From Candidatus Moranbacteria bacterium UBA2282 (GTDB taxonomy: Bacteria; Patescibacteriota; Minisyncoccia; Moranbacterales; UBA2206), in assembly GCA_002345745.1 (NCBI GenBank), contig DDWQ01000003.1:6028-70027 (forward strand): a stretch of 64,000 nucleotides of DNA, read 5' to 3'. Shown here in pieces: positions 11,252-54,319 of this stretch. Below the pieces are notes generated by a model. That model was not told the DNA's origin and searched no databases. It worked only from the letters and a program-made list of their open reading frames with translations. The translations under genes and the position numbers were made by a program. Positions within the stretch are counted from its first letter, which is position 1, and each line of letters begins with the position of its first letter.

Positions 11252-11851
11252 ATGAACATCAATCACAAGTTTCACTTTATGGGTCAAAAAGATGATGAAC
11301 TAGTCATTATGATTATTCGTCGACATTGGTTTAATATTTTGCAACAATTATTTCTAGTTTTTCTAATGATATTTTTTCTCTTTGGCAGCCTTATCTATTT
11401 ACCGACTCTCTTTCCGATTCTTAGCACTTCCTCCGCTCAATCACTGTTTATATTTCTAGAAAATTCTTTTGCTTTAGTTATTTGGATAATTTTTTTCCTA
11501 ATTTGGATCGACTACTATTTTGATGTGTGGATCATAACTACACACCGAGTTGTAAATATTAATCAAAAAGGGTTGTTTGTTCGGACTGTCAGTGAATTGG
11601 AATTTAATAAAATTCAAGATGTGACTACAGAAGTTATGGGGGTTATTGGAACTTTTCTAAATTTTGGCGATGTTTTTATTCAAACAGCTGGTGAAAAAGA
11701 ACGTTTCGTCTTTCGACAAGTGCCTAATCCCTATGCCATCAAAGACCTTATTATGAATTTAGAAGAAAAGGAAGAGCAGGTTGATGCCAGTAAAAAAGCT
11801 CATGATGAGGCTAGAGCGTTAAAAGATGTTTTGCAAAATAGACCACTTTAA
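11252..11851 (+). CDS. Membrane protein with bacterial PH-like (YdbS/YdbT-type) domain; start chosen at an internal Met
   Basis: Two TM helices followed by a soluble domain (VVNINQKGLFVRTVSELEFNKIQDV...GDVFIQTAGEKERFVFRQVPNPYAIKDLI) typical of bPH_2. The longer ORF start at 11201 overlaps a doubtful small ORF. Confidence 0.45.
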   Translation: MNINHKFHFMGQKDDELVIMIIRRHWFNILQQLFLVFLMIFFLFGSLIYLPTLFPILSTSSAQSLFIFLENSFALVIWIIFFLIWIDYYFDVWIITTHRVVNINQKGLFVRTVSELEFNKIQDVTTEVMGVIGTFLNFGDVFIQTAGEKERFVFRQVPNPYAIKDLIMNLEEKEEQVDASKKAHDEARALKDVLQNRPL

Positions 11852-22944: not shown

Positions 22945-25467
22945 ATGAAAAATATATTTACTATTTTTAGAACTTTCAAACGCGCACCGTGGCCAATTCG
23001 TTGGAAAATGCTGGGTAAATTGGCATTATATGCACTTGCTGTTTTTACTTTGCTAGCAATTGGAACTTTTGCCTATTTCGCCAAAGATTTGCCAGATGCA
23101 AGTGGCATTAGCAAGCGAGCAGTGACAGAATCAACAAAAATTTATGATCGTACTGGCGACCATTTGCTCTATGACATTCACGGTGAAGAAAAAAGAACTA
23201 AAATTGAATTTGCCAGTATGCCAGACACGGTTAAGTTTGCAACAATCTCACTCGAAGACAAAAGCTTCTATTCTCATCCAGGCTTTGATGTTAAAGGTCT
23301 TCTTAATGCTGTTTTGTCTAATATTACACGCAGTGGCGGTGGTCGTGGCGGATCGACTATCACTCAACAATTTGTTAAAAATTCTATTCTAACTAGCGAA
23401 CGATCTCTTTCCCGAAAAATTAAAGAGTTAATTCTAGCCATTGAATTGGAATTTAAATTTTCTAAAGACGAAATCTTGGCAATGTACCTTAATGAAATTC
23501 CTTATGGCTCCAACGCCTATGGCGTGGAAGCGGCATCACAAACTTTTTTTGGTAAACACGCATCAGAATTAACATTGGACGAATCTGCACTACTTGCCTC
23601 CCTACCACAAGCTCCGTCATATTACTCACCCTATGGAAATAACACGGATGCTTTGCGTGGACGCCAAGTTTTTGCGCTAAATGAAATGGCTAAATTAGGT
23701 TATATAACCCAAGAGCAATCTGATGCCGCCAAAGAGGTGGATATTTTAGCTAAAATAAAACCCTCTTCTGAAAATATTACTGCTCCACATTTTGTGATGT
23801 ATGTCAAAGAATATTTAGAAAAAACTTATGGGCAAGCTCTATTGGAAAAAGGCGGGCTTAGGGTTTATACCACCCTCGATTGGGATAAGCAACAAATAGC
23901 GGAGCTTGCAGTCAAAGAAGGTGCTGTTTCTAATACAGCTAAATATAAAGCTGAGAATGCCTCCCTTGTTGCGATGGATCCACGCACAGGACAAATAATC
24001 GCTATGGTAGGTAGCAAAAATTATTTTGACAAATCCATTGATGGTCAAGTCAATGTTGCCATTCGTGATCGCCAACCAGGCTCATCATTCAAGCCCTTTG
24101 TCTATTTGACCGCCTTCCAAAAAGGCTATACACCCGAAACGCAATTATGGGATGTAGATATAAACTTCTCGACTGACGACGGCAAAACTTACAATCCAAA
24201 AAATTATGATGGCAAAAACCGCGGACCATTAGAAATGAAAAATGCCTTGGCAATGTCTCTTAATGTTCCTGCAGTGGAAACACTCTATTTAGCTGGCGTC
24301 AAAGATTCTATTACCACTGCTAAATCACTCGGTATTACTGGACTAAATAAACCCGATGATTATGGTCTTTCTTTGGTTTTGGGTGGTGGCGAAGTGACAC
24401 TTCTAGATCACACTAATGCTTATGGCACTCTAGCTACGGGTGGCATTCACCATGATAAAGTTGCTATTTTAAAAGTTCTTGATGCTGATGGTAAAAAATT
24501 AGAGGAATATAAAGAAGAATCTGGGCAAAGAGTAGTGGAAGAAAAATATGTTGCTATGCTTGATTCTGTTATCTCGGATAATTCTTTGCGTGCCCCCGTA
24601 TTTGGTACCAACAATCCATTTAATTTTACTGACCGACCTGTGGCTGCTAAAACTGGAACGACTAATGAATGGCGCGATGGTTGGGCAATGGGTTACACTC
24701 CATCAATTGTGACTGGGGTTTGGGCTGGTAATAATGACAATTCTATTATGACACCCGGTGCTGATGGAATTTTTGTAGCTGCCCCTATTTGGAGAAAATT
24801 TATGGATGGCGTTTTGAAAAATTATACTGTTGAACAATTTCCAAAATATGAAAAAGAAGATACCGGCAAGGCAGTTTTGGATGGCACACTTGATCCAATG
24901 GCAAAAATTGAAGTGTGCAAAATCAAAAAAGACAACTATTGCCTAGCTAGTGATGCTTGCCCGAAAGGTTATTCTGAAGAAAAAACTTTCTTTTCAGGTC
25001 ACAACATTCTGTGGTATGTTAACAAAGATGATCCACGCGGAGATTTTCCGAAACACCCAGAAGATGATCCACAATTTAAAAATTGGGAAAAAGCAGTGCA
25101 AAAATGGGCTGAAAATAGCAAGGATTTTTCCAAAAATGTCGCTCCAACCGAAGAATGTAAGGTTAGTGATTTTGCCAATATTGCTCCCGAAGTTAAAATC
25201 TCTGCCCCTGCTGATGGTGCTACTATATCCTCCAATTCCATTACCATTGAAGCCTCAGCGTCATCTGATTTCGGCATAGAAAAAATTTCTATCGCCGTTA
25301 ATGGCACAGAAATAGATTCCAAAAATGACGCGTCTATCAGTGCTAATTATTTAATCTCTTCTCCTGGTTCTGATTTAAAAATTACTGCCACAGCAATTAG
25401 TAAAAATGGTAGCTCCAAGGCGATATCTATTACCGTAAAGACTACCACACCAACACCAGAGCTATAA
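22945..25467 (+). CDS. Class A penicillin-binding protein (PBP1A-type glycosyltransferase + transpeptidase) with a C-terminal extension
   Basis: GT51 motif RGGSTITQQFVKN; transpeptidase SSFKP (SxxK) and KTGT motifs; N-terminal TM anchor. Confidence 0.9.
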   Translation: MKNIFTIFRTFKRAPWPIRWKMLGKLALYALAVFTLLAIGTFAYFAKDLPDASGISKRAVTESTKIYDRTGDHLLYDIHGEEKRTKIEFASMPDTVKFATISLEDKSFYSHPGFDVKGLLNAVLSNITRSGGGRGGSTITQQFVKNSILTSERSLSRKIKELILAIELEFKFSKDEILAMYLNEIPYGSNAYGVEAASQTFFGKHASELTLDESALLASLPQAPSYYSPYGNNTDALRGRQVFALNEMAKLGYITQEQSDAAKEVDILAKIKPSSENITAPHFVMYVKEYLEKTYGQALLEKGGLRVYTTLDWDKQQIAELAVKEGAVSNTAKYKAENASLVAMDPRTGQIIAMVGSKNYFDKSIDGQVNVAIRDRQPGSSFKPFVYLTAFQKGYTPETQLWDVDINFSTDDGKTYNPKNYDGKNRGPLEMKNALAMSLNVPAVETLYLAGVKDSITTAKSLGITGLNKPDDYGLSLVLGGGEVTLLDHTNAYGTLATGGIHHDKVAILKVLDADGKKLEEYKEESGQRVVEEKYVAMLDSVISDNSLRAPVFGTNNPFNFTDRPVAAKTGTTNEWRDGWAMGYTPSIVTGVWAGNNDNSIMTPGADGIFVAAPIWRKFMDGVLKNYTVEQFPKYEKEDTGKAVLDGTLDPMAKIEVCKIKKDNYCLASDACPKGYSEEKTFFSGHNILWYVNKDDPRGDFPKHPEDDPQFKNWEKAVQKWAENSKDFSKNVAPTEECKVSDFANIAPEVKISAPADGATISSNSITIEASASSDFGIEKISIAVNGTEIDSKNDASISANYLISSPGSDLKITATAISKNGSSKAISITVKTTTPTPEL

Positions 25468-38670: not shown

Positions 38671-39819
38671 CTAGAGCGAAAGCTGATAGAGTTTTCCATC
38701 AATTCTGTTTACAAAAAACAAACTACTTTCATCCGGACTTAAAAATAATTCTGTTGCATCATAGGCTTGATCTATTTTGTCTAGGGTAATTATGCGAGTT
38801 TTTTCACCAGTAGTAACATCAACTTTCCAAAATGTATCACTGGTGTTGAATTTTGCATCATTATAATCATTGGGCATTGTTGCACCAGCAGGAATTGAAC
38901 TAGGTAGTGCATAATAAATAGTGGTGTTGTTTTTTGACCAAGCACATTTAGAAACCATTGTTGGAATGCCAAGCGTTTTATATTCTCCACCAACGCTGTT
39001 CATAACACTAAGTTGCAGTTTTGTTACATCTGTTGTTTCTATGCTGCTTTCAAGTAAAAAACTGCCATCAGAACTCCATAAATAGTCAGCTCCAAATTTA
39101 CCTTGAGTAATTGTTTTTATTTCTTCACCAAAAACTGGCACAGACGACATAGTCGCTTGTGTAAGGGAATCTGGCTTATTCCAAAAAGAAACCAAGCCCG
39201 TTTTTGGAATAATAGCAACACGAGCATCGCCATTAGGCAGGGTGATTATTTTTTTCCAATTAGAGCCATCCGGATCAGCGACATTAAGCGTTTGTTTATC
39301 TGTTGTTGACTTGGAATATTTATAAATAATTTTATTGTTGTTTTGCCAAATAAGATCAGCTATGCCATCTGCCAGTCCAACATTTTTGTTTTGCAGATAA
39401 TCATAAGAAGAAAATTTGGAGGATAAACTATCTTTTGGAAAACGGGAAACAACCTTGTTTGTGTCTGGCGACCAAATAATATCGGATAAATTTAGGAGTT
39501 CTGCCGAAGAAAGTGTTTTTTTGTTGTGGCTCAATATATCAACTTCAAAAGCATTGCCAGTTGCTTTTGCATAATATTTTATAGAATCACCAGTCGGAGA
39601 AATTATTGGTGCTAAAATAGGTTCATCTGTCAGTGCTGTAATCGTGGCATTTTTTGAAATTATTGGTTGCTCAGAAGGTTTTTCCGAGGTTGTTGTTGCT
39701 ATCTCTGAATCACTTGATGAAGGTGTTTGTTTGAAAGAAAGCAAATAAACCCCCCAAAGAAGCAGGATAACAATAAGTGCAATGGTGGAGGTGATAAAAA
39801 TTTTTTTAGGTAAGGACAT
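38671..39819 (-). CDS. Membrane-anchored extracytoplasmic protein, beta-propeller-like (TolB/PD40-like repeats?); last gene of the T4SS-like operon
   Basis: N-terminal TM IFITSTIALIVILLLWGVYLL; repeated WSPD/LSPD-type motifs. Assignment is weak. Confidence 0.4.
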   Translation of the reverse strand: MSLPKKIFITSTIALIVILLLWGVYLLSFKQTPSSSDSEIATTTSEKPSEQPIISKNATITALTDEPILAPIISPTGDSIKYYAKATGNAFEVDILSHNKKTLSSAELLNLSDIIWSPDTNKVVSRFPKDSLSSKFSSYDYLQNKNVGLADGIADLIWQNNNKIIYKYSKSTTDKQTLNVADPDGSNWKKIITLPNGDARVAIIPKTGLVSFWNKPDSLTQATMSSVPVFGEEIKTITQGKFGADYLWSSDGSFLLESSIETTDVTKLQLSVMNSVGGEYKTLGIPTMVSKCAWSKNNTTIYYALPSSIPAGATMPNDYNDAKFNTSDTFWKVDVTTGEKTRIITLDKIDQAYDATELFLSPDESSLFFVNRIDGKLYQLSL

Positions 39820-39840: not shown

Positions 39841-40536
39841 TTAAGTTTTTTTGATAAATTTTTTGTAAATAATCCAGAGAAGAGCAAAGAAGAACACTAT
39901 TATGATAATGATTATTATCACGGAATAAGATGATGTTGTGATTTGTGAGACAGGTTGTTGGACAGGTTGTGGAGTAGATTGTGTAAGTAAAATTTGTCCA
40001 GTAACAGGGTCTTTTATGACGCCACTATTTTTATTAAGCAGATCAGTCGTTTGCTGGCTGTATTCTGGTTTGCTGGTTGCGCAATCCCCTAGGCAATTTT
40101 GCGCCGTTTCACCTTTTTCGTATTCGCATATACCATTGCCATTGCAAACGGAAAATTTAGACAGATCAGTGTTCAGCAACTCTTTGTTGCCTAATTTTTC
40201 CAACACCTTAAGTTCGGTGGCCAAACTAAAATAAGGTATGTTTAGATTGAAAGCACCATCTTGTTTATTAAATTCGGTTGAAACAATCTTTTTTCCGTCT
40301 GCCTCATAAAGTTCCAATATAAATTCACCAGATGTTTTATTTTGTGCAAATTCAACGATGGAAATGTCTTTAGTGGTGTCATGAATAACATTTTCCGGAA
40401 CAGATTTATCAAAAGACAATGTGTTGGTTTTTGCAGCGTAGTAAAAGTATATCGTAAAAGCATCTGAAGCTTTGGATATTAATGGAGAGGCAAACAATGC
40501 AATTGTTATTGCAAAGAGGATGATTTTTTTCTTCAT
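39841..40536 (-). CDS. Secreted protein with N-terminal signal peptide and C-terminal TM anchor
   Basis: Signal MKKKIILFAITIALFASPLISKA; C-terminal hydrophobic IIIIIIIVFFFALLWIIY followed by KKFIKKT. Confidence 0.45.
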   Translation of the reverse strand: MKKKIILFAITIALFASPLISKASDAFTIYFYYAAKTNTLSFDKSVPENVIHDTTKDISIVEFAQNKTSGEFILELYEADGKKIVSTEFNKQDGAFNLNIPYFSLATELKVLEKLGNKELLNTDLSKFSVCNGNGICEYEKGETAQNCLGDCATSKPEYSQQTTDLLNKNSGVIKDPVTGQILLTQSTPQPVQQPVSQITTSSYSVIIIIIIIVFFFALLWIIYKKFIKKT

Positions 40537-40542: not shown

Positions 40543-41370
40543 TTATAAGCTAGCATAAGAATTTAAAACCCGAGTACAATAATTATCAGTGGTTTTAGCA
40601 CAATTATTAGGCTTGCCAGAATTATAACAAGACGCAACTTGTTGGATATCAGTCATTGGACAACGACTATTGTTGCTTTTGATGAGCCAAGCCGCACAAT
40701 TAGCATCTAGTTGTGGATCATTTTGAATTGCTAGACAGCTAGTCGTGGCATCGCCTGGGATGCCACAAGCTGTTCTTATCGCGGGCAAGGCTTGGGAATA
40801 TCCGCAGGAACCATAACCATCTGTCGATAAGCTTTTATTGCAACCTTCACCACCATCTATTATAGCCTTTAGAGTTTTTGGATCTACACCAGAAGAATTG
40901 TTATTAATCGCGTCATTCATACTACTACATTTAGAGTCTGTAACGGGTGCTCCAGTTGGGGTTGTGGGAGTTGTTATAGGAACTGGTTGAGTGGCAATAG
41001 TAGCAACAGTCCCGCTATCTAACCGAACTAAATTTGGGTTGATTTCATATAGCAACAAATAGGAAATCAATGCTAATATCAAACCAATAATAGCATCAGT
41101 AATAACTGCCTTAGATTTGTCGACGCTGGCAACGTTGGCAGCTGAAGAAATATACATATAACCGCCAATAGTGATCATCAGCAAAGCCGAAACTCCAACA
41201 CCCCAAATGCCAAATTTATAAACAGCAGCAATGTAATTGTAAAAATTACCATCCGTTGCAAAACCAGGAATTTGTTCCATCGGAGTATAACTAAAAGAAG
41301 CTGCCCAAGTTATTACGGGTAGGAACAAAAATAAAAAAATAGCGATGGTTAATATTTTTTTTGTATTCAT
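40543..41370 (-). CDS. TrbC/VirB2-like pilin-topology protein (signal peptide + two TM helices) with a Cys-rich C-terminal extracellular domain
   Basis: Signal peptide, then IWGVGVSALLMITIGGYMYI and AIIGLILALISYLLLYEI hydrophobic hairpin as in T4SS pilins. The C-terminal ~150 aa contain 14 Cys. Assigned from topology only. Confidence 0.4.
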   Translation of the reverse strand: MNTKKILTIAIFLFLFLPVITWAASFSYTPMEQIPGFATDGNFYNYIAAVYKFGIWGVGVSALLMITIGGYMYISSAANVASVDKSKAVITDAIIGLILALISYLLLYEINPNLVRLDSGTVATIATQPVPITTPTTPTGAPVTDSKCSSMNDAINNNSSGVDPKTLKAIIDGGEGCNKSLSTDGYGSCGYSQALPAIRTACGIPGDATTSCLAIQNDPQLDANCAAWLIKSNNSRCPMTDIQQVASCYNSGKPNNCAKTTDNYCTRVLNSYASL

Positions 41371-41408: not shown

Positions 41409-44168
41409 TTAAATTTGTTTTTGTTCGGGGAAAAGTGAAAACAAAGTGCGAACCAAGAAGAGAATCAATAACATTGTTAGTGCGATGCGGAAAAGAAAGT
41501 TAATGTAGCTTGGTATGGCAGAAAATAAACTAGCGAGAATTTTTTGTTGCGGATTTTTATTTTGACCCGTAATAATTGCTGTACCACTAAGATTATTCAC
41601 CATTTTAATTTCAATTGTTTGTGAAATAGATTTTTCATAAAAATTAGTTTGAGGAACTTTCCAAATAGTGAAGAGTGCTTTCTTAACTAAATTTGGTTGA
41701 GTGTAAAGTGCACTAAGAGTAATGTCATATTTTTCTCCTACAGGCTTATTGGCAGTGAATACAAGTGTGCCATTAGCTTCAATCGCAGTGATTCCAAGGG
41801 AAGCCATATTGTCGGTGGTTACTTGGATGCCATCAAAAATCCACGAGGCATTGTCTCCAGGAATGAGTGTATTGGAAGATGATTTTATTTTAACAACTTC
41901 GCCTGACAAAGCTTCAAATTTATCAAGGCTAAAATCTGGCCAGGCACTAGAAGTCATACCAGAAACTGGATTAGGATTAACATTGATTGGATCAATATAA
42001 TAGCCTAATAGAGTTGGCGCACAGGTATCTGTAGTGGTAGAGGTTATGAATATTGCTGGGTCAACTACACGAAATGTTTTAGATAAAATTATTTTCTCTC
42101 CCGTTGTTTTATTAAGAGCCTCTAATGATAATATATGTTGAGAATCTCTTCCTCCCAAGATTGGAATATAGGCGATGTTCTGTTTGGTTTCAGTAAGAGG
42201 TGCATTATCAAAAGACCATAAAAAATCATAACCAGATGGATTGGCAATATCAACCTTAACTCCAATTATCTCATTTTTTACGACTGGACAGATAGCAGAC
42301 TCTATTCCAACATTGCAACGCTCAGTAGCGTTATTTAAACCAAGAGTTAGACTGTCAGAAACGCTGGCCGAAAAAACCTTAATAGCACTCGATGATAACT
42401 GAATTGGAATAATGATAGTTCCGACACCCTCTTTTTTTCCTTCGATTGCTCGGAGGATAATTTTAGCATAAAAAGTTTTTTGGTTAGATTTTAATGCAGG
42501 AAGACTAGCTTTAAAATTCAAATTCATTTTAAGAGAATCAATACCGATGCCAGACAATTTTTTTAAACCAGTTTGGGATTCTAATTGTGCTAATGTCAAC
42601 ATTTTCCAATCCTTATCTTCGGCTGCAATATCCGAACTAAGATATATTTGCCAAGCATATTTCAAAAAAGACTTATTCTCCACCCCCATAATAGAAGACT
42701 GAACAATCAATTGATCGGCACTATCTGCAGATTCAGAATTCATTGGTGATTTGGGTTGATAAGACAAGGAAACTTCCATTTTTTCATCAGAGTTTCCTTC
42801 GCTAGGTTCGATGAAGCCGTCTAGAAGAGTGGTGTTGACGTCTTCGATAGTAATATTTGCTTCTGTTTCATCACTCATTCTTCCTACGAAGTCACCGCAT
42901 TCTCCACCTGCTATACAGACAGTGCAACTTTCAGAATGATCGCCACTAAGAAGAACAACTAGATGTGGAGGAAAAGCTTCATTATCAGAAAGAGGTTTCC
43001 AAAGAAAACTAGCTCCCCCTGCACCTTCCTCATAGCGAGTGGCTCCATCAGGAATGCTGTGGGATTCTACTGTGCCTGAGCAAGTCACATTAACCGTAAC
43101 AGGTCCTCCATAGGAACTACCAGGCTGGGAAAAACTATATACTAATCTATCATCCGTAGAACCACTATCCTCCTCCGATTTAATCTCTGGATTTCCACTA
43201 ATAGCCCATGTAATTTTATAGGAAGAGTCATCATAATTAGTTGATTCTACTGAAATTCCTTCCACTGCAACACCAATTTCGTCACCCGTTACATAATTCC
43301 AAGTAAGTGTGTTTCTTCCGAATCCAGCAACAGCGGCCTCATCCATCACCCCGCTATTGGTAGTGTCTTTTGAATTTGGGTTCGTGTGCCAAAATTCTTC
43401 TTCATTCAAATTAAATTTGCCGTCGCCAGTTTCTTCGTCAGGTGCGTTTGGAAATAAATGGTTTTCACATTTAATTTCAGTTTCATTGCCAGTTGCAACG
43501 TGGTGGACATAACAATGATTGGCTTTCCCTTTTTGGTCATCACCACCAAAAGAAGCCTCATACCCATCACCATCAGCAGGATCTTTCGCCACCTTGTATT
43601 GATTAGGCGCATTGCAATAATCAAGATTTGGTTGATCATCACAAATTGGAGCATCTTTTCCCATCGCTCTTTGCCAATCAAAATCACCACTAGCAACAAG
43701 ACGCATAGCTTCAATTTTATAATCCTCAATATCAACATTATCATCATTGTTTAAATCGCAACGAGAAACATAATCTGTATTATATCCATCATCACCTTTG
43801 TCGATAGTTTTGCAGTAACCACGTTTCAAATACCAACCGTAATAGAGAAGCGCGGGATCATTCATAAAATATGTAGCACTAGCTGAGGCAGTAATTTGCA
43901 TCCCTGGGACAGGACTGCTAGGTGTAAAGGTTAGTTTCACTTGGGGTGGGGTTTTTTTCTGACGAGCGACATTTACGTATTGAACAGTTTCTTTAAGTGC
44001 AGTTTGATCGACTCCGAAATAACTCATCATATCACTGAGTGCCTTTTCGGTAACGGCTGCCGATATCGGATCTAGACCTACCATTTCAGCATAAATAGCC
44101 GGTGCTCCCGAGGAAAAAATAATAGTCGAGATGAATAATAGTATAAGTGATTTTCGCAAAAAATTCAT
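41409..44168 (-). CDS. Large (919 aa) secreted surface protein with C-terminal TM anchor; T4SS-operon-encoded putative adhesin or surface component
   Basis: N-terminal signal peptide, Cys-rich segments, C-terminal TM INFLFRIALTMLLILFLVRTLF. Confidence 0.5.
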   Translation of the reverse strand: MNFLRKSLILLFISTIIFSSGAPAIYAEMVGLDPISAAVTEKALSDMMSYFGVDQTALKETVQYVNVARQKKTPPQVKLTFTPSSPVPGMQITASASATYFMNDPALLYYGWYLKRGYCKTIDKGDDGYNTDYVSRCDLNNDDNVDIEDYKIEAMRLVASGDFDWQRAMGKDAPICDDQPNLDYCNAPNQYKVAKDPADGDGYEASFGGDDQKGKANHCYVHHVATGNETEIKCENHLFPNAPDEETGDGKFNLNEEEFWHTNPNSKDTTNSGVMDEAAVAGFGRNTLTWNYVTGDEIGVAVEGISVESTNYDDSSYKITWAISGNPEIKSEEDSGSTDDRLVYSFSQPGSSYGGPVTVNVTCSGTVESHSIPDGATRYEEGAGGASFLWKPLSDNEAFPPHLVVLLSGDHSESCTVCIAGGECGDFVGRMSDETEANITIEDVNTTLLDGFIEPSEGNSDEKMEVSLSYQPKSPMNSESADSADQLIVQSSIMGVENKSFLKYAWQIYLSSDIAAEDKDWKMLTLAQLESQTGLKKLSGIGIDSLKMNLNFKASLPALKSNQKTFYAKIILRAIEGKKEGVGTIIIPIQLSSSAIKVFSASVSDSLTLGLNNATERCNVGIESAICPVVKNEIIGVKVDIANPSGYDFLWSFDNAPLTETKQNIAYIPILGGRDSQHILSLEALNKTTGEKIILSKTFRVVDPAIFITSTTTDTCAPTLLGYYIDPINVNPNPVSGMTSSAWPDFSLDKFEALSGEVVKIKSSSNTLIPGDNASWIFDGIQVTTDNMASLGITAIEANGTLVFTANKPVGEKYDITLSALYTQPNLVKKALFTIWKVPQTNFYEKSISQTIEIKMVNNLSGTAIITGQNKNPQQKILASLFSAIPSYINFLFRIALTMLLILFLVRTLFSLFPEQKQI

Positions 44169-44172: not shown

Positions 44173-44832
44173 TTACTTAAATAAATAAATTATATAGGTG
44201 TCTAGGATTATTAAAAAAAATAAACTCATTAAATAGGAATATAAAAAAGAGCGACTTTTGTAGGTGACGACTCCTCCCGTGAAGGATAATATTATAAGAG
44301 GAGCTAATTTCCAGGTTAGATCGTTGGTAAATAGCAGAAAAAAGGTAAAAATTAAAGCTTGTATAATAGCTACTGCAAAGCCAAATTTTTCAGAAAATAA
44401 AAATAAAATAAAACCTTTGAAAAAAAACTCTTGTATGAATAAAAGAATATTTACCAAAATAAGTTCATATAATAAAAATATGCCAAAATTTTGGGCTAGA
44501 TAGGCTGGAAGCAGATATTTGTTTTCAAAATCAAAAAAATGTATCAGAATAAAAATTATTAGTGCTGATACAAAAAACATTCCAATTGCCCAGATAATGC
44601 CAATTTTTGTGTTTTGCAGATTGAAACCAAAATTACGCAAATCTTTTTTCAGAATAAGTTTTATATATAGAATTGGCAGGAGAAAAAAGAAAAATAAATT
44701 AAGACTGAATTTTTGTGAAATGTCTTGGGTTGGAAAAAAAATAATCAGCAACAAACAAGCCAAAATGACAACGGAGCTGATTAGTTCTGTTTTCCAAGCG
44801 GAAATAAATTGTTTTGCTTTTTCTTGTGTCAT
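44173..44832 (-). CDS. Polytopic membrane protein (possible degenerate CPBP-like)
   Basis: Six or more TM helices. QEFFFKGF weakly resembles CPBP motif 1 (EExxxRG); other CPBP motifs are not found. Confidence 0.35.
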   Translation of the reverse strand: MTQEKAKQFISAWKTELISSVVILACLLLIIFFPTQDISQKFSLNLFFFFLLPILYIKLILKKDLRNFGFNLQNTKIGIIWAIGMFFVSALIIFILIHFFDFENKYLLPAYLAQNFGIFLLYELILVNILLFIQEFFFKGFILFLFSEKFGFAVAIIQALIFTFFLLFTNDLTWKLAPLIILSFTGGVVTYKSRSFLYSYLMSLFFLIILDTYIIYLFK

Positions 44833-44841
44833 TTTTTTGTA

Positions 44842-45426
44842 TTAAGCAGGTGTTGCATCTGCAATGCTTTGATTGATTGCTTGTGTTTGTGCATTTTTAA
44901 CAGCGACAGCTTCTTTTGCTTTTTCTGCATTTAATTTTCTTTCTTCCAAGGTCATTTTAAAAATAAAATAAACAGAAATAGCCTCTAGGGGCATTAGGTC
45001 TATGATAGGAATAATTTCTACGAGAGTCATTCCAGCTAAAAGCAAAAGTTTTCGCAATAGTGGACTAATTTTTATTTTAGCTTTTCCAGCTTTTGTTCGA
45101 GCTTCTTTAGTTTTGCTATAAGATCCAGTTAAAAATATGGTTATAATAATTACTGCGGAAGCCATCAAGGTAAAAATGAAAATTAGCACAGCGCCAATGC
45201 CACCAGCAGCAATTAAAGCTGTGTTGACAATATCTAGAATATCTTTGAGTAGGGCTGCCATAAAAGCGATAGCAAACAACCAATCCAGAAAAGGATTAAT
45301 CTGTGCCATAAGCGATACTGCACCTATGGTTGTCTTGGCACCTTTTTTAATCTGACTCACTGACTTTTTCAATGTGCCTGCACGGGAGGTTTTTAAATTG
45401 TTGGCATGATCTTGTTGATTAGCCAT
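44842..45426 (-). CDS. T4SS-associated membrane protein (3 TM)
   Basis: Hydrophobic segments; located immediately downstream of virB4. Confidence 0.4.
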   Translation of the reverse strand: MANQQDHANNLKTSRAGTLKKSVSQIKKGAKTTIGAVSLMAQINPFLDWLFAIAFMAALLKDILDIVNTALIAAGGIGAVLIFIFTLMASAVIIITIFLTGSYSKTKEARTKAGKAKIKISPLLRKLLLLAGMTLVEIIPIIDLMPLEAISVYFIFKMTLEERKLNAEKAKEAVAVKNAQTQAINQSIADATPA

Positions 45427-45461: not shown

Positions 45462-47300
45462 TTACATCTCATCTTCTTCAAAATCTTTTTTGGCTTGCTC
45501 TATTTCTAGCAGTTGTGAAGGGTCGGTCGTGATAATCTGGTCTTCACTATAGGAGGCAACGACTTTGATGGCGACGTGTTTGGTGCCAGCAAAGAAAATT
45601 CCCTCTCCCACATTACTTTCTAGTAACAAAAATTTTTCTTGGTCAGTCAGATAGAATGTATCAGTGATAACATCAATAGCGGCTGGAGATTGTTTGAGCA
45701 AAAGCTGAATTGATGAATTGGTTACAATCGGTTTGCCATAACGAGATGAAAGAAAATCATTAACATCTTGCGTGATGGTTGTAAGTCCAGTATAGTATTT
45801 TCTGCAACGTTTTGCAATTCCAAAAAGGAAAGAAGCAGCGTCATCAGACTTCATCATTACCCAAGCTTCATCTACTAAAACCATACGACGCTTAACATTG
45901 GTACGCATCTCATTCCAAATAAATTGTAAGATAATATACATTGCTACGGGTCGCAGGTCATCTTCCATATCGCGAATATTAAAAACGACTAGTTTATTGT
46001 CAACTTTAATATTGGTAGTGCTATTAAGAAAGCCGGCAAAAATTCCTTCAGTATATTTTTCTAGTCGTATAGCTAAATTTTCACCACCGTCCATATTACG
46101 CAAAACTTGATGCAAATCTGCCATCGTTGGATACGCTTCTTTGGTCAGGGAATTAAAATCAGTCTTTCCGTTAATATCGCGAATATCATATGTTTCATGC
46201 ACGGCTCGATCAAGAATAGAATCCTCTTCTGGTGTAATATTACCCAGCATCAAATGCAAAAGACCTAATAAACTCGCAATATTATTGCGTAGAATATCCT
46301 CTGGATCATCATCATCACCTACCATCGGAAGATCAAATGGGTTTAAATGATTTCTTGAGTTAAGGGATATTTTAATGAAAGACCCATCAACGGTATCACA
46401 GAGATGTTTATATTCATTCTCTGGATCAATAATAATAACATCTGTTCCAATCATAAGGGAGCGTAAAACTTCTAGTTTTACGGCATAGCTTTTTCCACTT
46501 CCTGATTTGGCAAAAACCACCATATTAGCATTTTCCATTTTGAAACGATCAAAAAGAATTAAGCTATTATTGTGCCTATTGATGCCATATAAAATACCTT
46601 CATCATTAGAGAGAGTCGAGGAAACAAAGGGAAATGTTGTTGAAAGTGGGGCAGAATTCATATTTGTGCCAACATTTAATTCATCGTTTGCGAGGGGAAT
46701 AGTTGAATTGAATCCTTGCTCGGTTTTAAAAATAGCTGGTTTGATATAAACCAATTGTGCTTCTAGAATTGATTCAATACTGCGGGTAGTTTTGTCTAGC
46801 TCAGACTCAGTTTGACCATAAACAGTTACATATAAACCAAAACGAAAGAACTTTTCTGTTCCTTGTTGTAATTTATCGCGAAGTTCATCGATATCTTGCA
46901 TAGCTGTTTCCAACGCTGGGTCGCGAATCAGTCCCTTTTCTTGCTCAATATGCAGTTGGGATTGAACTTGTGTAGCACTTTTTCGCAAAGTCTTGAGGAT
47001 GTCGTATGTTTCAATAGGGTGAATAAACATAGAAATATCAATAGACATATCGATATTTATGATTGGAGAAAACCAATTACTATTCAAATAACGCGGATAG
47101 GAAATAACAAAAATAGTTCGTGCCAGCGTTTCGCCAAGTTGAATTGATTTAGGTAGGATTTTTATGGCCGCCGGCGCTAAAAGATCTTGTAATTTAGCAA
47201 TACCTTCTTGATAGTTTTTTTCAGATTGCATAAAATCATCAAGTTGTTCTTGACTTTGTGGTTGTTGTCCAGTATTTTTTTTATGCAGAAAATCAAACAT
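45462..47300 (-). CDS. virB4: VirB4/TrbE/TcpF-family T4SS ATPase, C-terminal ATPase part
   Basis: Walker A VVFAKSGSGKSYAV, Walker B RMVLVDEAWVMM, and the CagE/TrbE/VirB4-like region upstream. Confidence 0.85.
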   Translation of the reverse strand: MFDFLHKKNTGQQPQSQEQLDDFMQSEKNYQEGIAKLQDLLAPAAIKILPKSIQLGETLARTIFVISYPRYLNSNWFSPIINIDMSIDISMFIHPIETYDILKTLRKSATQVQSQLHIEQEKGLIRDPALETAMQDIDELRDKLQQGTEKFFRFGLYVTVYGQTESELDKTTRSIESILEAQLVYIKPAIFKTEQGFNSTIPLANDELNVGTNMNSAPLSTTFPFVSSTLSNDEGILYGINRHNNSLILFDRFKMENANMVVFAKSGSGKSYAVKLEVLRSLMIGTDVIIIDPENEYKHLCDTVDGSFIKISLNSRNHLNPFDLPMVGDDDDPEDILRNNIASLLGLLHLMLGNITPEEDSILDRAVHETYDIRDINGKTDFNSLTKEAYPTMADLHQVLRNMDGGENLAIRLEKYTEGIFAGFLNSTTNIKVDNKLVVFNIRDMEDDLRPVAMYIILQFIWNEMRTNVKRRMVLVDEAWVMMKSDDAASFLFGIAKRCRKYYTGLTTITQDVNDFLSSRYGKPIVTNSSIQLLLKQSPAAIDVITDTFYLTDQEKFLLLESNVGEGIFFAGTKHVAIKVVASYSEDQIITTDPSQLLEIEQAKKDFEEDEM

Positions 47301-47986
47301 TATTTTAATTCTAGATTGTTAATATCTCCAATCGTAGTATCCATAAAAAGATTAGGATTGTAGGAATTGTAAATTAATTCAATAAGCTCTTGAGTTCCTA
47401 GCATCGTCATACGCGTGCCAATTCCAGATAGTGCGGCTTCAATGTGGTCAGCTCTTTGCAGTAGTTGGTTTTTGTAGGTTTCAAAATTTTCTCTTTTTTG
47501 CATAATATCTTTGCGGGCATTGTTTCTGCTAAAAAGATTACCCAAAAAGCTTTTTTCTGTATTCTCGACGGGGGCAAAAGGCACAATTATATAAAAACTT
47601 TTATCCATTATATTTGAGACGGAAACTAATTGACGGATGAAATTTTTATATTCAGCAGTTTGCAGACGCAGAAGTTCATTAGTTTGTTCTTTTTCCTTTT
47701 TTTCAACAAACTCCATATATTTATTAACATTCATTTTTCGCGAACTGATGAGGATTTGAATCGGAAAGTCGAGGGAGTTTAGAAAATTTTGATATTGGGC
47801 AATAATTGCTTCTTGCTCATCGCTAGATTTTAGATCAAAATTAATAGCTGATACGGCAAGGATGGCTCGCAATGAACCATTTTTAAGAACAATAACATCT
47901 TCTTCAATTTCGGCAATATCAAGAAACTGCTGAGTAGCAGAGGTCGTTGTTTGTTTGGTTATTTTACTTGAATTTAATGATTCCAT
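47300..47986 (-). CDS. VirB4 N-terminal domain encoded as a separate ORF (split virB4), translationally coupled (TAATG overlap)
   Basis: LKNGSLRAILAVSAINFDLKSSDEQEAIIAQYQNFLNSL resembles the N-terminus of Gram-positive VirB4 homologues (TcpF/PrgJ/Orf16: ..DG....L.V..INF.L.S..E...I). Its stop shares one nucleotide with the ATG of the ATPase ORF. Confidence 0.55.
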   Translation of the reverse strand: MESLNSSKITKQTTTSATQQFLDIAEIEEDVIVLKNGSLRAILAVSAINFDLKSSDEQEAIIAQYQNFLNSLDFPIQILISSRKMNVNKYMEFVEKKEKEQTNELLRLQTAEYKNFIRQLVSVSNIMDKSFYIIVPFAPVENTEKSFLGNLFSRNNARKDIMQKRENFETYKNQLLQRADHIEAALSGIGTRMTMLGTQELIELIYNSYNPNLFMDTTIGDINNLELK

Positions 47987-48387
47987 TATCTTTTATTTAT
48001 CTCTAATAGTTTTGATATTTCTTCAATTTTTTGGCTAGAAAGTTCTTTTTTGGAAATTGCTGGAACAGTTTTTTTAACAGAGGATTTAACAGTGCTTATC
48101 TGGTCAGGCAATCTTTTCCACATATATATCTTTGGCTTGGTGAAAAAAGAAATAGCGGAAAGGATAAACATTATTAGTGGTTGGCTATGCGGTCGATAGA
48201 AAGCCAGGGCACCGAAAAGTATCGATAGTATGATGGCGATGACAATAAAGGCGGAGGTATCTAGAAAGCTCCAACAGAAAAGAAGAATAACACCATCCAG
48301 AGCCAACCAACCTAATTGCTTTGCAGTTAGCGGACCGACAATTTTGTCTTCAATATCAATAAATTGTGGGACGTTGAATAGGGACAT
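47986..48387 (-). CDS. VirB3/PrgI/TcpE-like small two-TM membrane protein
   Basis: 133 aa with two TM helices, directly upstream of virB4 as in Gram-positive T4SS loci; N-terminus FNVPQFIDIEDKIVGPLTAKQLGWL. Confidence 0.5.
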   Translation of the reverse strand: MSLFNVPQFIDIEDKIVGPLTAKQLGWLALDGVILLFCWSFLDTSAFIVIAIILSILFGALAFYRPHSQPLIMFILSAISFFTKPKIYMWKRLPDQISTVKSSVKKTVPAISKKELSSQKIEEISKLLEINKR

Positions 48388-49817: not shown

Positions 49818-52010
49818 TTAGGGAGTACCTCCTCCACCTGCAGGAGCACCACTTGCAGCAGTAGCCGTAGCTGCGGCAGCAATACCAGCAATACCACGAC
49901 GCTCCCTTAGTTTATTAATGAAGGCAGTTATATTAGCACTTTGTTCAGGCGTAACATCTGGTCCAGTAGCATATGTTTCCATGTTTGCTAAGTTTGCATC
50001 GCTGGCCAAGTTTTTTATGAAATCTGGTCTAACTCTACTTAGAACATCAACTTCTTGTTGAGAAACATTGCGTAATTGAGCCAGTCCGATCGCATGTAAT
50101 CCTCCAGCACGACTTCCATCCGTTAGATTGCCATTAGTATCTCGATTTGGAATTTCTGTAAGAAATGAATTCCAATGCCAGGTGTCAGCCTTGGTTTGAA
50201 CTTTAATATTGTTAGCCTTGCCAATTGCTGCTGCTGCTTGATCAGGATCTTCATTTTTTTGATATTTTTGTTTTTTAACATTCCAACTGGCCATAGCATA
50301 ATTGGCAAAATTTCCCTTGGAGTTTGCGATTTCACCCAGATCAGCCATTTGACGCAGTGCCTCTTGCTCATTCATGCCACCTTCCGTAAATTGTTTAAGT
50401 ATGTAATTTTTCATAGCAAAAGGATCGACATCTTGATTATTAAGCTTCATAAATTCATTTTGGTCATTATTATTAAACATAATGCGCAAAACGGCAGACA
50501 TTTTTTCAGTGTCTTTCGCTACTTTGGCTTTGGTAAATTCATCTACTAAAATTTCAGATTCACTAGCAAATTCAGATAATTCTTTTTGTTTTTTGAGCAC
50601 GTTAGTTTGAATAGCTGCTTGTTGGTTTCTAGTTTTATCTTTGCCAAGACTGAACGCTGAATTCCAGCGATCATGCCAGATGCCAGTTGATTCTTCCAGT
50701 GCTTTTCTTTCGGATTCTGCAGATTGTTTTTTCCAACCAGAGATAATTCCTCGAGGACGTAAACCCTTTGGTATAACATTTCTTTCAAAAGCCTTGAGTC
50801 CTGCAATGGCAGCATATTTTGCACCAGACTTCACACCACCACCCATCATTCTCGGCAACCAAGTACTAGCTTTTTGTGCAGCACCCATAACTGTGCTGGC
50901 GCCCTCAATCCCCATCTTCTGTGCAATGCCCATTCCCATCCACAAAATGACAATCGGGATAGCCATATTTGCCATAGAGGTTATGACACTGTCTTGCTGG
51001 GCGAGCTCAAATGATTCGCCGATAGCCGTCATTGTGAAAATAGCGATATGCAAAACAAAAACCATAATCGGTCCAAAAAAAGAATATTTGATTATATTAT
51101 CCCACCAGCCGAAATCTTTGCCGGCGATGTTACCAACGAAAGCTACGGGTGAAATTATAATCAAAATAGCTAGTGCAACGATTCTCACTAAAAATAGAAC
51201 AGCTAGAGCTAGAAATGTGACAGCTAGTAGAAAAGTAAAAAATATAGCGGCAAAAAGTTGCGGGTAGGAGGCATCAGTATTGGTTTGAAGAATATTTTTG
51301 ATGTCCCCTCCAGTAGTTATTCCAGTTAAAATGGAAGTTGGATCTGTAGCTGAATTTGGAAAAAATTGCGTAAGCATAGTGTACATCAAGGAGTTAGAAA
51401 TATCTACAATGAAGCGGGCGATGGGAAAACTAAAATTGACCAACAGCGCCATCAAAACAATTGTCAGAATTATTTTTTTCTCACCAAATTTGCCTCCAAT
51501 TTGAAAAATGATAGAAAAAGCGGAATAGAGCAGAAAGAGAATGAAAGCGATGTTGAGAAAATCACGCACTTCCATCCAGACTGTGTAGAGTGCTGGACTT
51601 GCCACAACATCTTGCAATTTTTTAGCATCAACAACAACGCCAAACAGTGCTGCTGATGCACCAAGCAACATACCATTGAATTTAAGAATGCCTACAAGAA
51701 GACAACTACCATTTGCAATGTCTCCTATACCGCATCCGAGAATAGTGCCTCCCTCAGTATTTACCTGCTGTGGAGTTTTGCCTGCCTTGCTAGGGTCAAT
51801 AGCTCGAACTTCTATTGCCTTTGTATTATCAATAGGACCAGCTGAAGACGGCAGGCTGGAAAGCCCTGTTGGATTAAATGTAGTTGGTTCTGCAGCATTT
51901 GCTGTGGGAGTGTTGGATATTTGCAGATTAATTAAACCACCAAAAACAATCATAAAAATGATAATGGCAGAAAAAAAACTAGCGACTTTTTTTTGAAATT
52001 TGTTTTTCAA
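49818..52010 (-). CDS. VirB6/TrbL-like polytopic membrane protein with a long hydrophilic C-terminal extension
   Basis: N-terminal signal/TM, central block of ~6-7 TM helices, C-terminal ~350 aa soluble region ending in an Ala/Gly-rich tail. Confidence 0.55.
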   Translation of the reverse strand: MKNKFQKKVASFFSAIIIFMIVFGGLINLQISNTPTANAAEPTTFNPTGLSSLPSSAGPIDNTKAIEVRAIDPSKAGKTPQQVNTEGGTILGCGIGDIANGSCLLVGILKFNGMLLGASAALFGVVVDAKKLQDVVASPALYTVWMEVRDFLNIAFILFLLYSAFSIIFQIGGKFGEKKIILTIVLMALLVNFSFPIARFIVDISNSLMYTMLTQFFPNSATDPTSILTGITTGGDIKNILQTNTDASYPQLFAAIFFTFLLAVTFLALAVLFLVRIVALAILIIISPVAFVGNIAGKDFGWWDNIIKYSFFGPIMVFVLHIAIFTMTAIGESFELAQQDSVITSMANMAIPIVILWMGMGIAQKMGIEGASTVMGAAQKASTWLPRMMGGGVKSGAKYAAIAGLKAFERNVIPKGLRPRGIISGWKKQSAESERKALEESTGIWHDRWNSAFSLGKDKTRNQQAAIQTNVLKKQKELSEFASESEILVDEFTKAKVAKDTEKMSAVLRIMFNNNDQNEFMKLNNQDVDPFAMKNYILKQFTEGGMNEQEALRQMADLGEIANSKGNFANYAMASWNVKKQKYQKNEDPDQAAAAIGKANNIKVQTKADTWHWNSFLTEIPNRDTNGNLTDGSRAGGLHAIGLAQLRNVSQQEVDVLSRVRPDFIKNLASDANLANMETYATGPDVTPEQSANITAFINKLRERRGIAGIAAAATATAASGAPAGGGGTP

Positions 52011-53091: not shown

Positions 53092-54126
53092 TTATTGAGA
53101 TAATTTTTGAACTAGGTCGTCGCTTGGCAGATCCATCCCATAGGAACTCAGTTTGTTTTGCAGAGAATCATCAAAGGTCAAGTCATAGGAATCAATTTTT
53201 GCTGTCATATCATCTGAAAATGCAGAAGCATAGCTCATAAAGCCTAATACTTTAGAAAAATTAGCAATACTTGTGAGTGGGTCTGTCGGATTGGGTGCAA
53301 AAAGAGTGTTGAGATTTTGTGCATATTCAGTTATTTGCAATGCTTCAATATGCAAATCAGCCAAATCTTCTGGCACGGGGATGCTTTTCATCTGTTCTAT
53401 AATTTTTTGGTCAGTAGCAAGAATGTCTGCGATGGCTTTCGGATCTTGCGATGTAATGGCTGTTGTAAAACTCTGAGTAATGGAATTAGAAAGCGTTGAA
53501 ATGTCAGAAGTTGAGGTGACGGGAGTTGGTGAGTTGCTAGACAGCACATAGGAAACTCCCACAATATAATCAGTGAGATCATCTTTTTTTGCTGCTGTGA
53601 TTTGCTCGTCATTTAAACCTTTAAAATCGTCTTGTTTAATGATGATGTCATCTTTCGTGACTACTGGCATTTCATCTGAAGAAACTTGAGTATTGAGGGA
53701 ATCATCGACTAGTGAATTGACTTGTTCTAGGGTAACATCTTTGTTGGCAGGATCACTGCTACTGAGCATAGTCGCTATTTTTTGGGTAACATTAATAGTA
53801 AGGTTTTCTTGTGCAGAATCTACAGGTGTTTCTGTAGTTGCATTTGCAATGGTCGGAATTATTTTATCACCAGGTGACGGTTTGGTGGGATCATAGCCAG
53901 ATTGAACTTCAGCTCCATCGGAATAACCATCGCCATCACTATCTGCTTTTTGTGGATCAGTACCATAGGTTGTTTCTTCCGCATCAGAAAGACCATCTTG
54001 GTCGTTATCAAGAAAAATGTTTTTAGTTGTTGTCGCTTGTTCTTGTGCCGTTGCAAAAAAAGAAAAGCTTGCAATAACTAGCGCAAATAAAACTATTAAA
54101 GATAATTGAATTTTTTTTATTTTCAT
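53092..54126 (-). CDS. Secreted protein with thrombospondin-type-3-like Ca-binding Asp-rich repeats; first gene of the operon
   Basis: Signal peptide MKIKKIQLSLIVLFALVIASFSFFATA, then DNDQDGLSDAEETTYGTDPQKADSDGDGYSDGAEVQSGYDP (DxDxDG repeats). Confidence 0.5.
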   Translation of the reverse strand: MKIKKIQLSLIVLFALVIASFSFFATAQEQATTTKNIFLDNDQDGLSDAEETTYGTDPQKADSDGDGYSDGAEVQSGYDPTKPSPGDKIIPTIANATTETPVDSAQENLTINVTQKIATMLSSSDPANKDVTLEQVNSLVDDSLNTQVSSDEMPVVTKDDIIIKQDDFKGLNDEQITAAKKDDLTDYIVGVSYVLSSNSPTPVTSTSDISTLSNSITQSFTTAITSQDPKAIADILATDQKIIEQMKSIPVPEDLADLHIEALQITEYAQNLNTLFAPNPTDPLTSIANFSKVLGFMSYASAFSDDMTAKIDSYDLTFDDSLQNKLSSYGMDLPSDDLVQKLSQ

Positions 54127-54319
54127 TTCGTATACGAAAAACGCATTAGGACAACACACATTCAAATAGTCGTAAGAGATTATTATTAACTCAGTACACT
54201 AAAATTATACCATAAAAAAACAAGTTTGATAAAGGTCTGTTGGCTGTGTATAACTTTTTGAGTTATTTTATTGCAAAACATTAGTTGCTAAAAAGTAGTA
54301 AGACTGATAAATTAGAAAT

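Follow-up and report, generated by a model that had tools for sequence, protein, structure and literature searches.

A stretch of 64,000 nucleotides from Candidatus Moranbacteria bacterium UBA2282 (contig DDWQ01000003.1, positions 6,028 to 70,027; hereafter, the window) carries on its minus strand an open reading frame (ORF) of 275 amino acids whose product appears to join a pilin-like membrane hairpin to a Cys-rich lysozyme-like domain. On balance, and with modest confidence, we take this protein to be a peptidoglycan glycosidase reserved for the type IV secretion system (T4SS), that is, a VirB1 equivalent built on a VirB2-like pilin hairpin. The ORF is divided as follows:

40543 to 41370, minus strand: whole ORF, 275 amino acids from ATG to stop by translation, with signal peptide, pilin-like hairpin, linker and lysozyme-like domain.
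41299 to 41370, minus strand: predicted signal peptide, residues 1-24 (MNTKKILTIAIFLFLFLPVITWA, followed by A), from hydropathy and a small-x-small site.
41026 to 41298, minus strand: T4SS_pilin-like module, residues 25-115, with YxPMExIPG, helix 43-75, loop SSAANVASVDKSKA, helix 80-110 and an INPNLV end.
40930 to 41025, minus strand: Thr/Pro-rich flexible linker, residues 116-147, highly variable in length and sequence, with a predicted local distance difference test (pLDDT) score below 50 at 121-129.
40546 to 40929, minus strand: Cys-rich lysozyme-like or divergent SLT domain, residues 148-275, with 10 Cys, from AlphaFold2, Foldseek and profiles.
40846 to 40848, minus strand: codon of Glu175, the putative catalytic acid/base in an invariant GGEG (40837-40857 translates as DGGEGCN).

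The gene at 40543-41370 is real, as judged by its homologues, identical copies and conserved domain boundaries. A database search retrieved 105 homologues at E ≤ 1e-3, which, if named, belong to Candidatus Moranbacteria or Paceibacteria and keep the domain boundaries, and the identical 275-aa protein is present on 7 public contigs. The original prediction, made from the sequence of the window, had given the span exactly and named no strand; the coding strand is the minus strand, and translation of the plus strand over these positions yields many stops. Upstream, 38 nt separate the gene from a 919-aa ORF, and downstream a 231-aa ORF follows after 6 nt; scans for consensus promoters and terminators around it gave chance-level results, uninformative either way. 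Among the fusions, P0020 is labeled "pilin" by NCBI and P0035 "transglycosylase SLT domain-containing protein".

The C-terminal 128 residues form a divergent lysozyme-like/SLT enzyme domain, with predicted activity. Pfam recognizes SLT in 18, SLT_3 in 12, NlpC/P60 in 5 and C39_2 in 1 of the homologues that share the architecture, and the window sequence "GGEGCNKSLSTDGYGSCGYSQALP...SCYNSGKPNNC" aligns with "QESGCNPN...GACGMMQILP...ASYNAGSG" of the SLT-type relatives, with P0016, P0017 and P0028 as intermediates between the Cys-rich and the canonical SLT sequences. Against the PDB, a profile of 36 family members matched MltC (E 1.7e-6), EmtA/MltE (3e-5) and Slt70 (4.5e-5), and also EtgA and i-type lysozyme. 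A profile of the 25 Cys-rich members gave a single match, the Tapes japonica i-type lysozyme 2DQA (E 3.5e-4), with the SCGY(S/F)Q motif and six Cys in register and an alignment that stops short of the catalytic Glu. On its own, the window domain scores 13.4 bits against Pfam SLT (PF01464; E 0.057, 95 of 131 residues), below the gathering score of 21.3 bits, a value exceeded by the clade member P0028 (22.5 bits); P0017 also matches. The AlphaFold2 model of the domain (pLDDT 94-98) points to a lysozyme-like fold: the top 49 of the 50 matches listed by Foldseek against the PDB are lysozyme-superfamily enzymes, among them Slt, phiKZ gp144, MltF, Cj0843, Meretrix i-type lysozyme, leech destabilase, GH23 chitinase and phage endolysins, with a probability of 0.9-1.0 for the first 39. 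RpfC and DslA are weak partial matches among those listed.

The catalytic motifs are also kept. In the Cys-rich clade, G174, E175, C189, G190, Q193, C202, C212, D222, C225, Y249, G252 and Y264 are invariant, and E175, which in the model directly follows helix 164-174, is present in 25 of 25 members. In the GYSQ motif, G190 and Q193 are each conserved in 59 of 61 sequences; in the CYNSG motif (248-252), Y249 is found in all 61, the Asn in 56 and G252 in 55. Counted without gaps, the Gly of G-x-x-Q lies 15 residues after the Glu in MltC (IESSFNPYAVSRSDALGLMQ), EmtA and the window protein alike, and Glu175 is therefore taken as the putative catalytic residue, subject to the alignment shift considered below. 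Asp184 is present in 20 of the 25 clade members; lytic transglycosylation and true hydrolysis would both be possible, and this partly conserved Asp leaves lysozyme chemistry open.

With the family 1 lytic transglycosylases (Slt70, MltC, EmtA/MltE, EtgA), the domain would thus have in common the fold, the helix-end Glu 15 residues before the G-x-x-Q Gly and an (A/C)-Y-N-x-G motif, but it differs in having E-G rather than E-S, GYSQ rather than GLMQ, five predicted disulfides and a sub-threshold Pfam score. With the i-type lysozymes (2DQA, Meretrix lusoria 4PJ2, leech destabilase 8BBU), it shares SCGY(F/S)Q and the six Cys in register, and the Foldseek match to 4pj2_C has 27% identity and a TM-score of 0.59 normalised to the lysozyme. 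In contrast to these enzymes, the window protein is bacterial and sits on a predicted membrane hairpin, its C-domain does not match Pfam Destabilase (PF05497) at E ≤ 10, and it is uncertain whether D184 (20/25 members) corresponds to the second catalytic Asp. The domain resembles the i-type lysozyme/destabilase family, to judge from its motifs and Cys; membership in that family goes beyond what the evidence supports.

The head is also unusual in its Cys content. Its 128 residues contain 10 Cys (148, 177, 189, 202, 212, 225, 237, 248, 257 and 265), and residues 1-147 contain none. The original prediction had counted 14, while the motifs that it listed likewise hold 10. Against the background of 0.61% Cys in the 39 long ORFs of the window, the probability of at least 10 in 128 residues is 8.7e-9, and the domain has the highest Cys density anywhere in the 64 kb; the enrichment is far above chance. 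Across the orthologues, Cys are lost in pairs or sets: P0018 lacks both C148 and C177, P0024 lacks all four C-terminal Cys, and the window protein, P0005 and P0007 lack both the extra Cys before C148 and the C-terminal Cys that are common to most orthologues. This supports disulfide pairs and an extracytoplasmic head, as had been proposed from the start. Paired loss is the signature expected of disulfides, and it would fit a hairpin whose Lys-rich loop lies in the cytoplasm.

The N-terminal part shows the topology originally claimed for it, a signal peptide followed by two transmembrane helices: by hydropathy, there are hydrophobic stretches at residues 1-29, about 47-68 and about 86-115, and the AlphaFold2 model shows two long helices (43-75 and 80-110) with a short loop containing Lys between them, with a pLDDT of about 80-93 in the hairpin and of 79.5 for the N-terminal model used for the fold search. 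In the homologue alignment, a conserved small-x-small site directly precedes the conserved mature N-terminus SFxYxPMExIPG, so that cleavage between TWA and AS is plausible. At the module boundary, I110, N111, P112 and L114 are nearly invariant; the Thr/Pro-rich stretch after the second helix reads TQPVPITTPTTPTGAPVT.

The module is assigned to a family through its relatives. PF18895 (T4SS_pilin) is matched by 88 of the 105 homologues at E ≤ 1e-3, and its gathering score of 26.6 bits is exceeded by some of them (P0058 with 34.3, P0072 with 32.3 and P0096 with 31.3 bits); the window protein itself does not match the PF18895 hidden Markov model (HMM) even at E ≤ 10. The free-standing pilins P0144-P0148 (124-166 aa) are 35-70% identical across 96-99% of the module, the closest being P0144 (70% identity over 97%). 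P0144-P0146, of 124 and 133 aa, stop a few residues past INPxLV, where the linker of the window protein starts, and to this extent it is true that, as the original prediction put it, canonical VirB2 pilins end there. When the six short PF18895 pilins of locus L015 were compared with the window, the sole ORF matched was the target, five of the six at E 3e-6 to 5e-4. Searches of the window with the N-terminal HMM and with these L015 pilins found no second copy of the pilin module, and an HMM search found no second copy of the lysozyme domain. The module is probably a member of the predicted Patescibacterial T4SS-pilin family, through transitive homology and not through the HMM itself. Like the described PF18895 pilins, including those of the Southlakia epibionticum array, it has a signal peptide, two hydrophobic helices and a short loop, lies in or near a virB4 cluster and occurs in arrays; in contrast to them (about 90-200 aa, without an enzymatic domain), the window protein adds a linker and a 128-aa glycosidase domain. 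The array of Southlakia epibionticum is essential (PMC10633639, PMC12102498).

Homology to canonical VirB2/TrbC (PF04956) was not detected with hhalign against eight proteins, and the family profiles found zero pilins in the PDB. The hhalign comparison of the N-terminal alignment with these eight annotated VirB2/TrbC sequences, taken from alphaproteobacterial plasmids, reached a probability of 7.4% over 34 columns, in register on helix 1; because this is non-significant, the module is not filed under canonical VirB2. Foldseek with the N-terminal hairpin returned generic helical hairpins only (E > 1, zero pilins), the hairpin being too simple to discriminate. The module is VirB2-like in architecture only. 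Of the VirB2/TrbC-like stem first proposed, what stands is the topology, together with the PF18895 homologues, the short pilins and the T4SS operon; the link to canonical VirB2/TrbC does not.

The target lies inside a co-directional run on the minus strand, from about 52010 down to 38671, which comprises:

49818 to 52010, minus strand: VirB6-like polytopic membrane protein, 730 aa, with a weak match to PF19590 (TrbL_3) and six hydrophobic segments.
Between the VirB6-like and PrgI/VirB3-like genes, minus strand: soluble protein, 445 aa.
47300 to 48387, minus strand: TraC-like protein (228 aa, PF26593, from a precomputed Pfam match) and PrgI/VirB3-like protein (133 aa, PrgI match at 3.2e-10).
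45462 to 47300, minus strand: VirB4-type T4SS ATPase, 612 aa, matching P-loop_TraG (1.1e-33), AAA_10, TraC_F_IV and CagE_TrbE_VirB.
44173 to 45426, minus strand: two conserved small membrane proteins, one of 194 aa with two transmembrane segments and one of 219 aa, polytopic, both syntenic in L003, L014 and L016.
41409 to 44168, minus strand: surface protein, 919 aa, with signal peptide, C-terminal transmembrane segment and 13 Cys, without a Pfam match.
39841 to 40536, minus strand: partner gene, 231 aa, starting 6 nt after the stop codon of the target.
38671 to 39819, minus strand: last gene of the cluster, 382 aa, with an N-terminal transmembrane segment and orthologues in L003, L004, L005 and L016.

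In the direction of transcription, the order is VirB6-like, 445-aa, PrgI/VirB3-like, TraC-like, VirB4, 194-aa, 219-aa, 919-aa, target, 231-aa and 382-aa, with three genes between the target and VirB4 in one co-directional cluster. By its gene content, this is a conserved, monoderm-type T4SS cluster as predicted from sequence. The TrbL_3 match of the VirB6-like orthologue in L016 carries no weak flag. The identical gene order, with a pilin-hydrolase fusion at the slot of the target, recurs in L003, L014 and L016, where the heads are canonical SLT (L003, L016) and Cys-rich lysozyme (L014). Neither a coupling protein nor a relaxase was found among the window ORFs scanned. Past the cluster come Wzy_C, a glycosyltransferase, yidC, rnpA, rpmH and dnaA/dnaN, with ksgA on the other side; T4SS clusters beside dnaA are typical in Patescibacteria (PMC12102498). 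A class A penicillin-binding protein (PBP) is encoded at 22945-25467, and the organism therefore makes its own peptidoglycan. Two members of the cluster deserve a side remark. Proteins of 846-1073 aa occupy the slot of the 919-aa protein in L003, L004, L014 and L016, and the 919-aa protein may be a surface component of the T4SS or an adhesin belonging to it. In the polytopic 219-aa protein (44173-44832, minus strand), QEFFFKGF resembles motif 1 of CPBP proteases, and no His motifs follow.

The Cys-rich domain is one of several that can occupy the end of this module. At least four unrelated heads are found on pilin modules that share 77-95% identity with the window N-terminus: the Cys-rich lysozyme (window protein, P0002), a canonical SLT (P0035), a head with an SHxNGYKxD...HWD motif (P0021, P0046) and one with WRITE...SCHTNGTCAD (P0033). 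Further heads, SLT, SLT_3, NlpC/P60 and C39-like, are found at lower module identity. In the close relative L005, P0021 comes after a canonical SLT gene and takes the slot held in the window by the 231-aa gene; L004 has a lysozyme fusion and an NlpC/P60 fusion at one locus, two genes apart (no NlpC/P60 fusion occurs in the window); and L017 has adjacent fusions, one with a C39-like peptidase head. In L015 (10001-15349, MUNK22-1 scaffold_7), two long fusions lead a pilin array in the order lysozyme fusion, partner, 379-aa fusion with an SHxNGYKVD...HWD head and six short PF18895 pilins of 90-204 aa, with no virB4 adjoining within 10 kb.

Word-indexed searches returned few proteins (five with the isolated N-domain, two with the isolated C-domain), so that an exhaustive search of representatives was needed to establish the distribution. 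In phmmer over 1.84 billion cluster representatives, the Cys-rich head was found in 52 clusters, 48 with an upstream pilin-like module and 4 being evident fragments. Within the reach of this search, the Cys-rich head exists only as a pilin fusion.

Several other heads on near-identical pilin modules are without a Pfam or PDB match (P0021, P0046, P0033, P0098, P0047, P0054 and L017 8943-9998). By eye, a number of these contain His/Asp motifs of LAS/M15- or M23-like appearance (SHxNGYKxD...HWD, SCPHTSGMALD...EPWHFE, GSHAxDF...GNHxH), and the ORF just upstream of the C39-like fusion in L017 combines a pilin-like N-terminus with an M15-like motif. A reading of the P0021/P0046 head as a LAS/M15-type metallopeptidase, also made by eye, was set aside as being without Pfam or PDB support. 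The contigs of L004/L021 (CAZXKY010000002.1) and P0062 are labeled "uncultured Bdellovibrionales" and "Candidatus Fimivivens sp." despite typical Patescibacterial loci; these labels are probably binning or labeling errors.

The gene that follows the target is tied to the type of head. The 231-aa partner consists of a signal peptide and a beta-rich region, carries the motif CN(G/S)NGxCE...E...C..DC without variation, and ends in a hydrophobic or amphipathic stretch, which in the window copy is a transmembrane segment. Homologues lie directly downstream of the Cys-rich fusion in L004 (10863-11588), L014 (8399-9007) and L015 (11038-11625), at E 1e-42 to 1e-49, and also in L018-L023. Six-frame searches found no partner in L003, L005, L016 and L017, whose fusions bear other heads. 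A scan of a genome collection with the partner alignment yielded six full-length homologues, one being the L004 contig again, and in all six the same strand carries a pilin plus Cys-rich-lysozyme ORF whose end reaches the partner region or stops up to about 80 nt short of it. The partner thus adjoins the Cys-rich-lysozyme fusion in 9 of 9 independent loci, as against 0 of 4 loci with other heads. Profile searches gave no Pfam or PDB assignment for it; an Ig-like hint to Hoc (E 0.71) was non-significant, and a match to SUR7 was spurious, driven by the two hydrophobic ends. Purely as a hypothesis, the partner could be an inhibitor or immunity protein, or an adaptor. The CNGNG(I/K)CE motif alone also occurs in unrelated metagenome-assembled genomes (L024-L029; archaea, a gammaproteobacterium, Owenweeksia and Vogelbacteria), and may be a small, widespread disulfide module.

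Taken as a tethered VirB1-like glycosidase, the protein would act as follows. Sec would export the precursor, and the signal peptide would be removed after TWA24. The two helices would insert as a hairpin whose Lys loop faces the cytoplasm and whose ends both lie outside; hydropathy and the AlphaFold2 model give the topology, while the orientation is deduced from the positive-inside rule and the disulfide-rich C-domain. The Thr/Pro linker of about 30 residues would hold the 128-residue lysozyme-like domain outside the membrane, where five disulfides, whose pairing is backed by the correlated loss of Cys, would stabilise it. Glu175, at the end of helix 164-174, would cleave the glycan strands of peptidoglycan together with the GYSQ and CYNSG motifs of the cleft. 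The hairpin would place the enzyme at the T4SS platform (VirB6-like, VirB3-like, VirB4) encoded in the same operon, thereby confining wall cutting to the point where the apparatus or pilus passes. In the weakest step of this scheme, the co-occurring secreted protein encoded downstream would probably control or neutralise the Cys-rich head. In the largest survey, most Patescibacterial genomes with VirB2-like pilins are without a detectable VirB1 (PMC12102498); a hydrolase hidden inside a "pilin" would explain this absence. In S. epibionticum, transposon sequencing showed that the hydrolases whose genes lie downstream of virB4 are essential (PMC12102498).

The closest functional parallels would be VirB1 (Agrobacterium), PrgK (pCF10), TraG (pIP501), CwlT (ICEBs1) and TcpG (pCW3), with which the window protein shares a lysozyme-like/SLT domain encoded in a T4SS operon, membrane-tethered and extracytoplasmic. 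The likeness extends to an NlpC/P60 activity predicted from the same locus in relatives of the window protein: monoderm VirB1-like enzymes join a glycosidase and an NlpC/P60-type activity in one protein (PMC12102498), and L004 carries both on separate fusions. In contrast to these enzymes, the anchor is a cleavable signal peptide plus a two-helix hairpin rather than a single transmembrane segment or a lipobox, and the head is unusually Cys-rich and followed by a dedicated partner gene. Unlike PrgK, TraG and CwlT, the window protein has one glycosidase domain and not SLT and CHAP (or NlpC/P60) together. In the alphaproteobacterial MPF_T plasmids examined, virB1 lies directly beside virB2, whereas the domain order of the window protein is reversed, with the pilin before the enzyme; because of this order, a simple virB1-virB2 read-through fusion was rejected.

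Several points weigh against the interpretation as a tethered VirB1. Scanned directly against Pfam and NCBIfam, the window protein yielded no useful match (none above the Pfam threshold), so that the assignment rests on homologues and profiles. The glycosidase activity is predicted from homology, and so is the pilin nature of the PF18895 proteins a prediction. The Foldseek E-values are weak (0.04-0.5), because the query was the full-length model. Gapped alignments by MAFFT and HMMER put Glu175 one residue past the canonical Glu, under the Ser of "E-S", because the aligners match Cys177 and open a gap later. To our knowledge, classical VirB1 enzymes need neither a partner nor an immunity protein, and the strict tie to a partner gene, together with the exchange of heads, is more reminiscent of an effector system. 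Finally, the wall that is cut may be that of the cell itself or that of a host.

These last points lead to a possible but doubtful alternative, in which the fusion would be a genuine subunit of a pilus, either a minor one or the only one, whose head on the outside or tip of the pilus digests host peptidoglycan at contact, with the partner as immunity protein or inhibitor. F-type pilins expose both termini on the outside of the pilus, and F-pilin tolerates peptides fused to its C-terminus. Contact-dependent wall-hydrolase effectors with adjacent immunity genes are known from the Xanthomonas T4SS (X-Tfe/X-Tfi) and the T6SS (Tse/Tsi), and the likeness to them consists in a constant N-terminal module, variable wall-degrading heads and a small secreted protein encoded directly downstream of one head. 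The near-identical modules with at least four unrelated heads, the L015 fusions at the head of six short pilins, which look like a major-plus-minor pilin set, and the strict tie of the partner to the Cys-rich head, as in effector-immunity pairs, fit a host-directed pilin equally well as, or better than, a tethered VirB1. The Patescibacterial T4SS and its pilin arrays are, moreover, essential for epibiotic growth in a role that is unexplained (PMC10633639, PMC11665869). On the other side, the pilus of such systems is itself predicted, and other pilin-family ORFs are absent from the 64-kb window, so that the pilus would consist of bulky fusions only or its pilins would be encoded elsewhere. A 14-kDa head on each subunit may carry a steric cost, and the partner has no recognisable inhibitor fold. 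In contrast to X-Tfe, the constant module is a pilin-like hairpin and not an XVIPCD-type signal, and immunity by the partner is a hypothesis; in contrast to effector-immunity pairs in general, canonical SLT heads come without any partner. In its widest form, which we put forward tentatively, the Patescibacterial VirB2-like pilin would be a modular carrier of interchangeable wall-degrading heads (i-type-like lysozyme, SLT, SLT_3, NlpC/P60, C39-like and His/Asp-motif domains), the T4SS an armed pilus or contact organelle that opens the host wall, and the partner a dedicated immunity protein or inhibitor.

It is unlikely that the protein is instead a releasable pro-enzyme, in which the hairpin would serve as an export and targeting module and cleavage after INPxLV would yield a short pilin and, near the T4SS, a free lysozyme similar to VirB1*. 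For Gram-negative systems, it is established that TrbC is trimmed at its C-terminus and that VirB1* is released. The free-standing relatives of 124-133 aa, which end a few residues past INPDLV, the nearly invariant I110, N111, P112 and L114 at the boundary, and the disordered and variable linker would all be consistent with such processing. However, a protease candidate was not identified in the operon (the EFFFKG of the 219-aa protein is CPBP-like by eye but has no downstream His), and the conserved INPxLV may be a mere helix-capping or packing element.

A housekeeping autolysin for growth or division, with a two-helix anchor and beside the T4SS genes by chance, is still less probable. The chromosomal locus near dnaA/dnaN and cell-envelope genes would suit it, as would the wall enzymes encoded nearby (an M23 peptidase, a G5-DPBB protein and the PBP), but four lineages keep the slot that is flanked by the 919-aa protein and by the end of the VirB4 operon, the anchor is specifically homologous to T4SS_pilin proteins found in arrays, and T4SS clusters beside dnaA are the norm in the phylum (PMC12102498). 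The original prediction of a non-enzymatic, disulfide-knotted tip adhesin on a pilin is highly improbable: an extracytoplasmic, Cys-rich head on a flexible stalk would agree with it, and an inactive lysozyme fold could still bind glycan, but it is rejected because the whole clade retains the catalytic Glu and the two cleft motifs without variation, while the sister heads are all hydrolases and sequence and fold agree on homology to lytic transglycosylases and lysozymes. Profiles, Foldseek and motifs place the head in the lysozyme-like/SLT enzyme superfamily, and homology to an enzyme family, named beforehand as the finding that would speak against an adhesin, is what was found.

Outside the T4SS cluster, the window encodes further surface and wall proteins:

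53092 to 54165, minus strand: TSP3-repeat protein, just upstream of the T4SS genes.
56895 to 57701, minus strand: G5-DPBB (RlpA/YabE-like) protein.
11826 to 13865, plus strand: LTD+PKD surface protein.
4719 to 5828, plus strand: M23 peptidase with CARDB.

A 1010-aa protein (6373-9405, plus strand) matches T2SSE (PilB/GspE-type ATPase) in two stretches (E 2.6e-227), and has the look of a secretion or type IV pilus ATPase that was duplicated in tandem within one polypeptide.

Patescibacteria may make up a quarter of bacterial diversity. Their T4SS is conserved, lies beside the replication origin and is essential on the host, and its role has been called "completely unknown" (PMC11665869). The system, its VirB2-like pilins, the pilin arrays and nearby hydrolases have been described (PMC12102498, PMC10633639, PMC12857230, PMC11665869, bioRxiv 10.1101/258137); a search of the open-access literature found no mention of pilins fused to hydrolases, of the Cys-rich head or of the partner gene. 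The present locus shows one place where a VirB1 hydrolase can hide, namely in a protein annotated as "pilin" or "hypothetical". The swappable heads, the fusion-only Cys-rich head and the strict partner pairing provide testable handles on how the wall, own or host, is crossed, and the motif and Cys framework that the head shares with i-type lysozymes bears on the evolution of the lysozyme superfamily. Were the modular armed pilin true, it would give the first case of a conjugative-type pilin that carries its own enzyme, along with a new effector-immunity logic. As a VirB1 equivalent on a pilin hairpin, the fusion suggests how the essential T4SS of these parasites gets through the cell wall.

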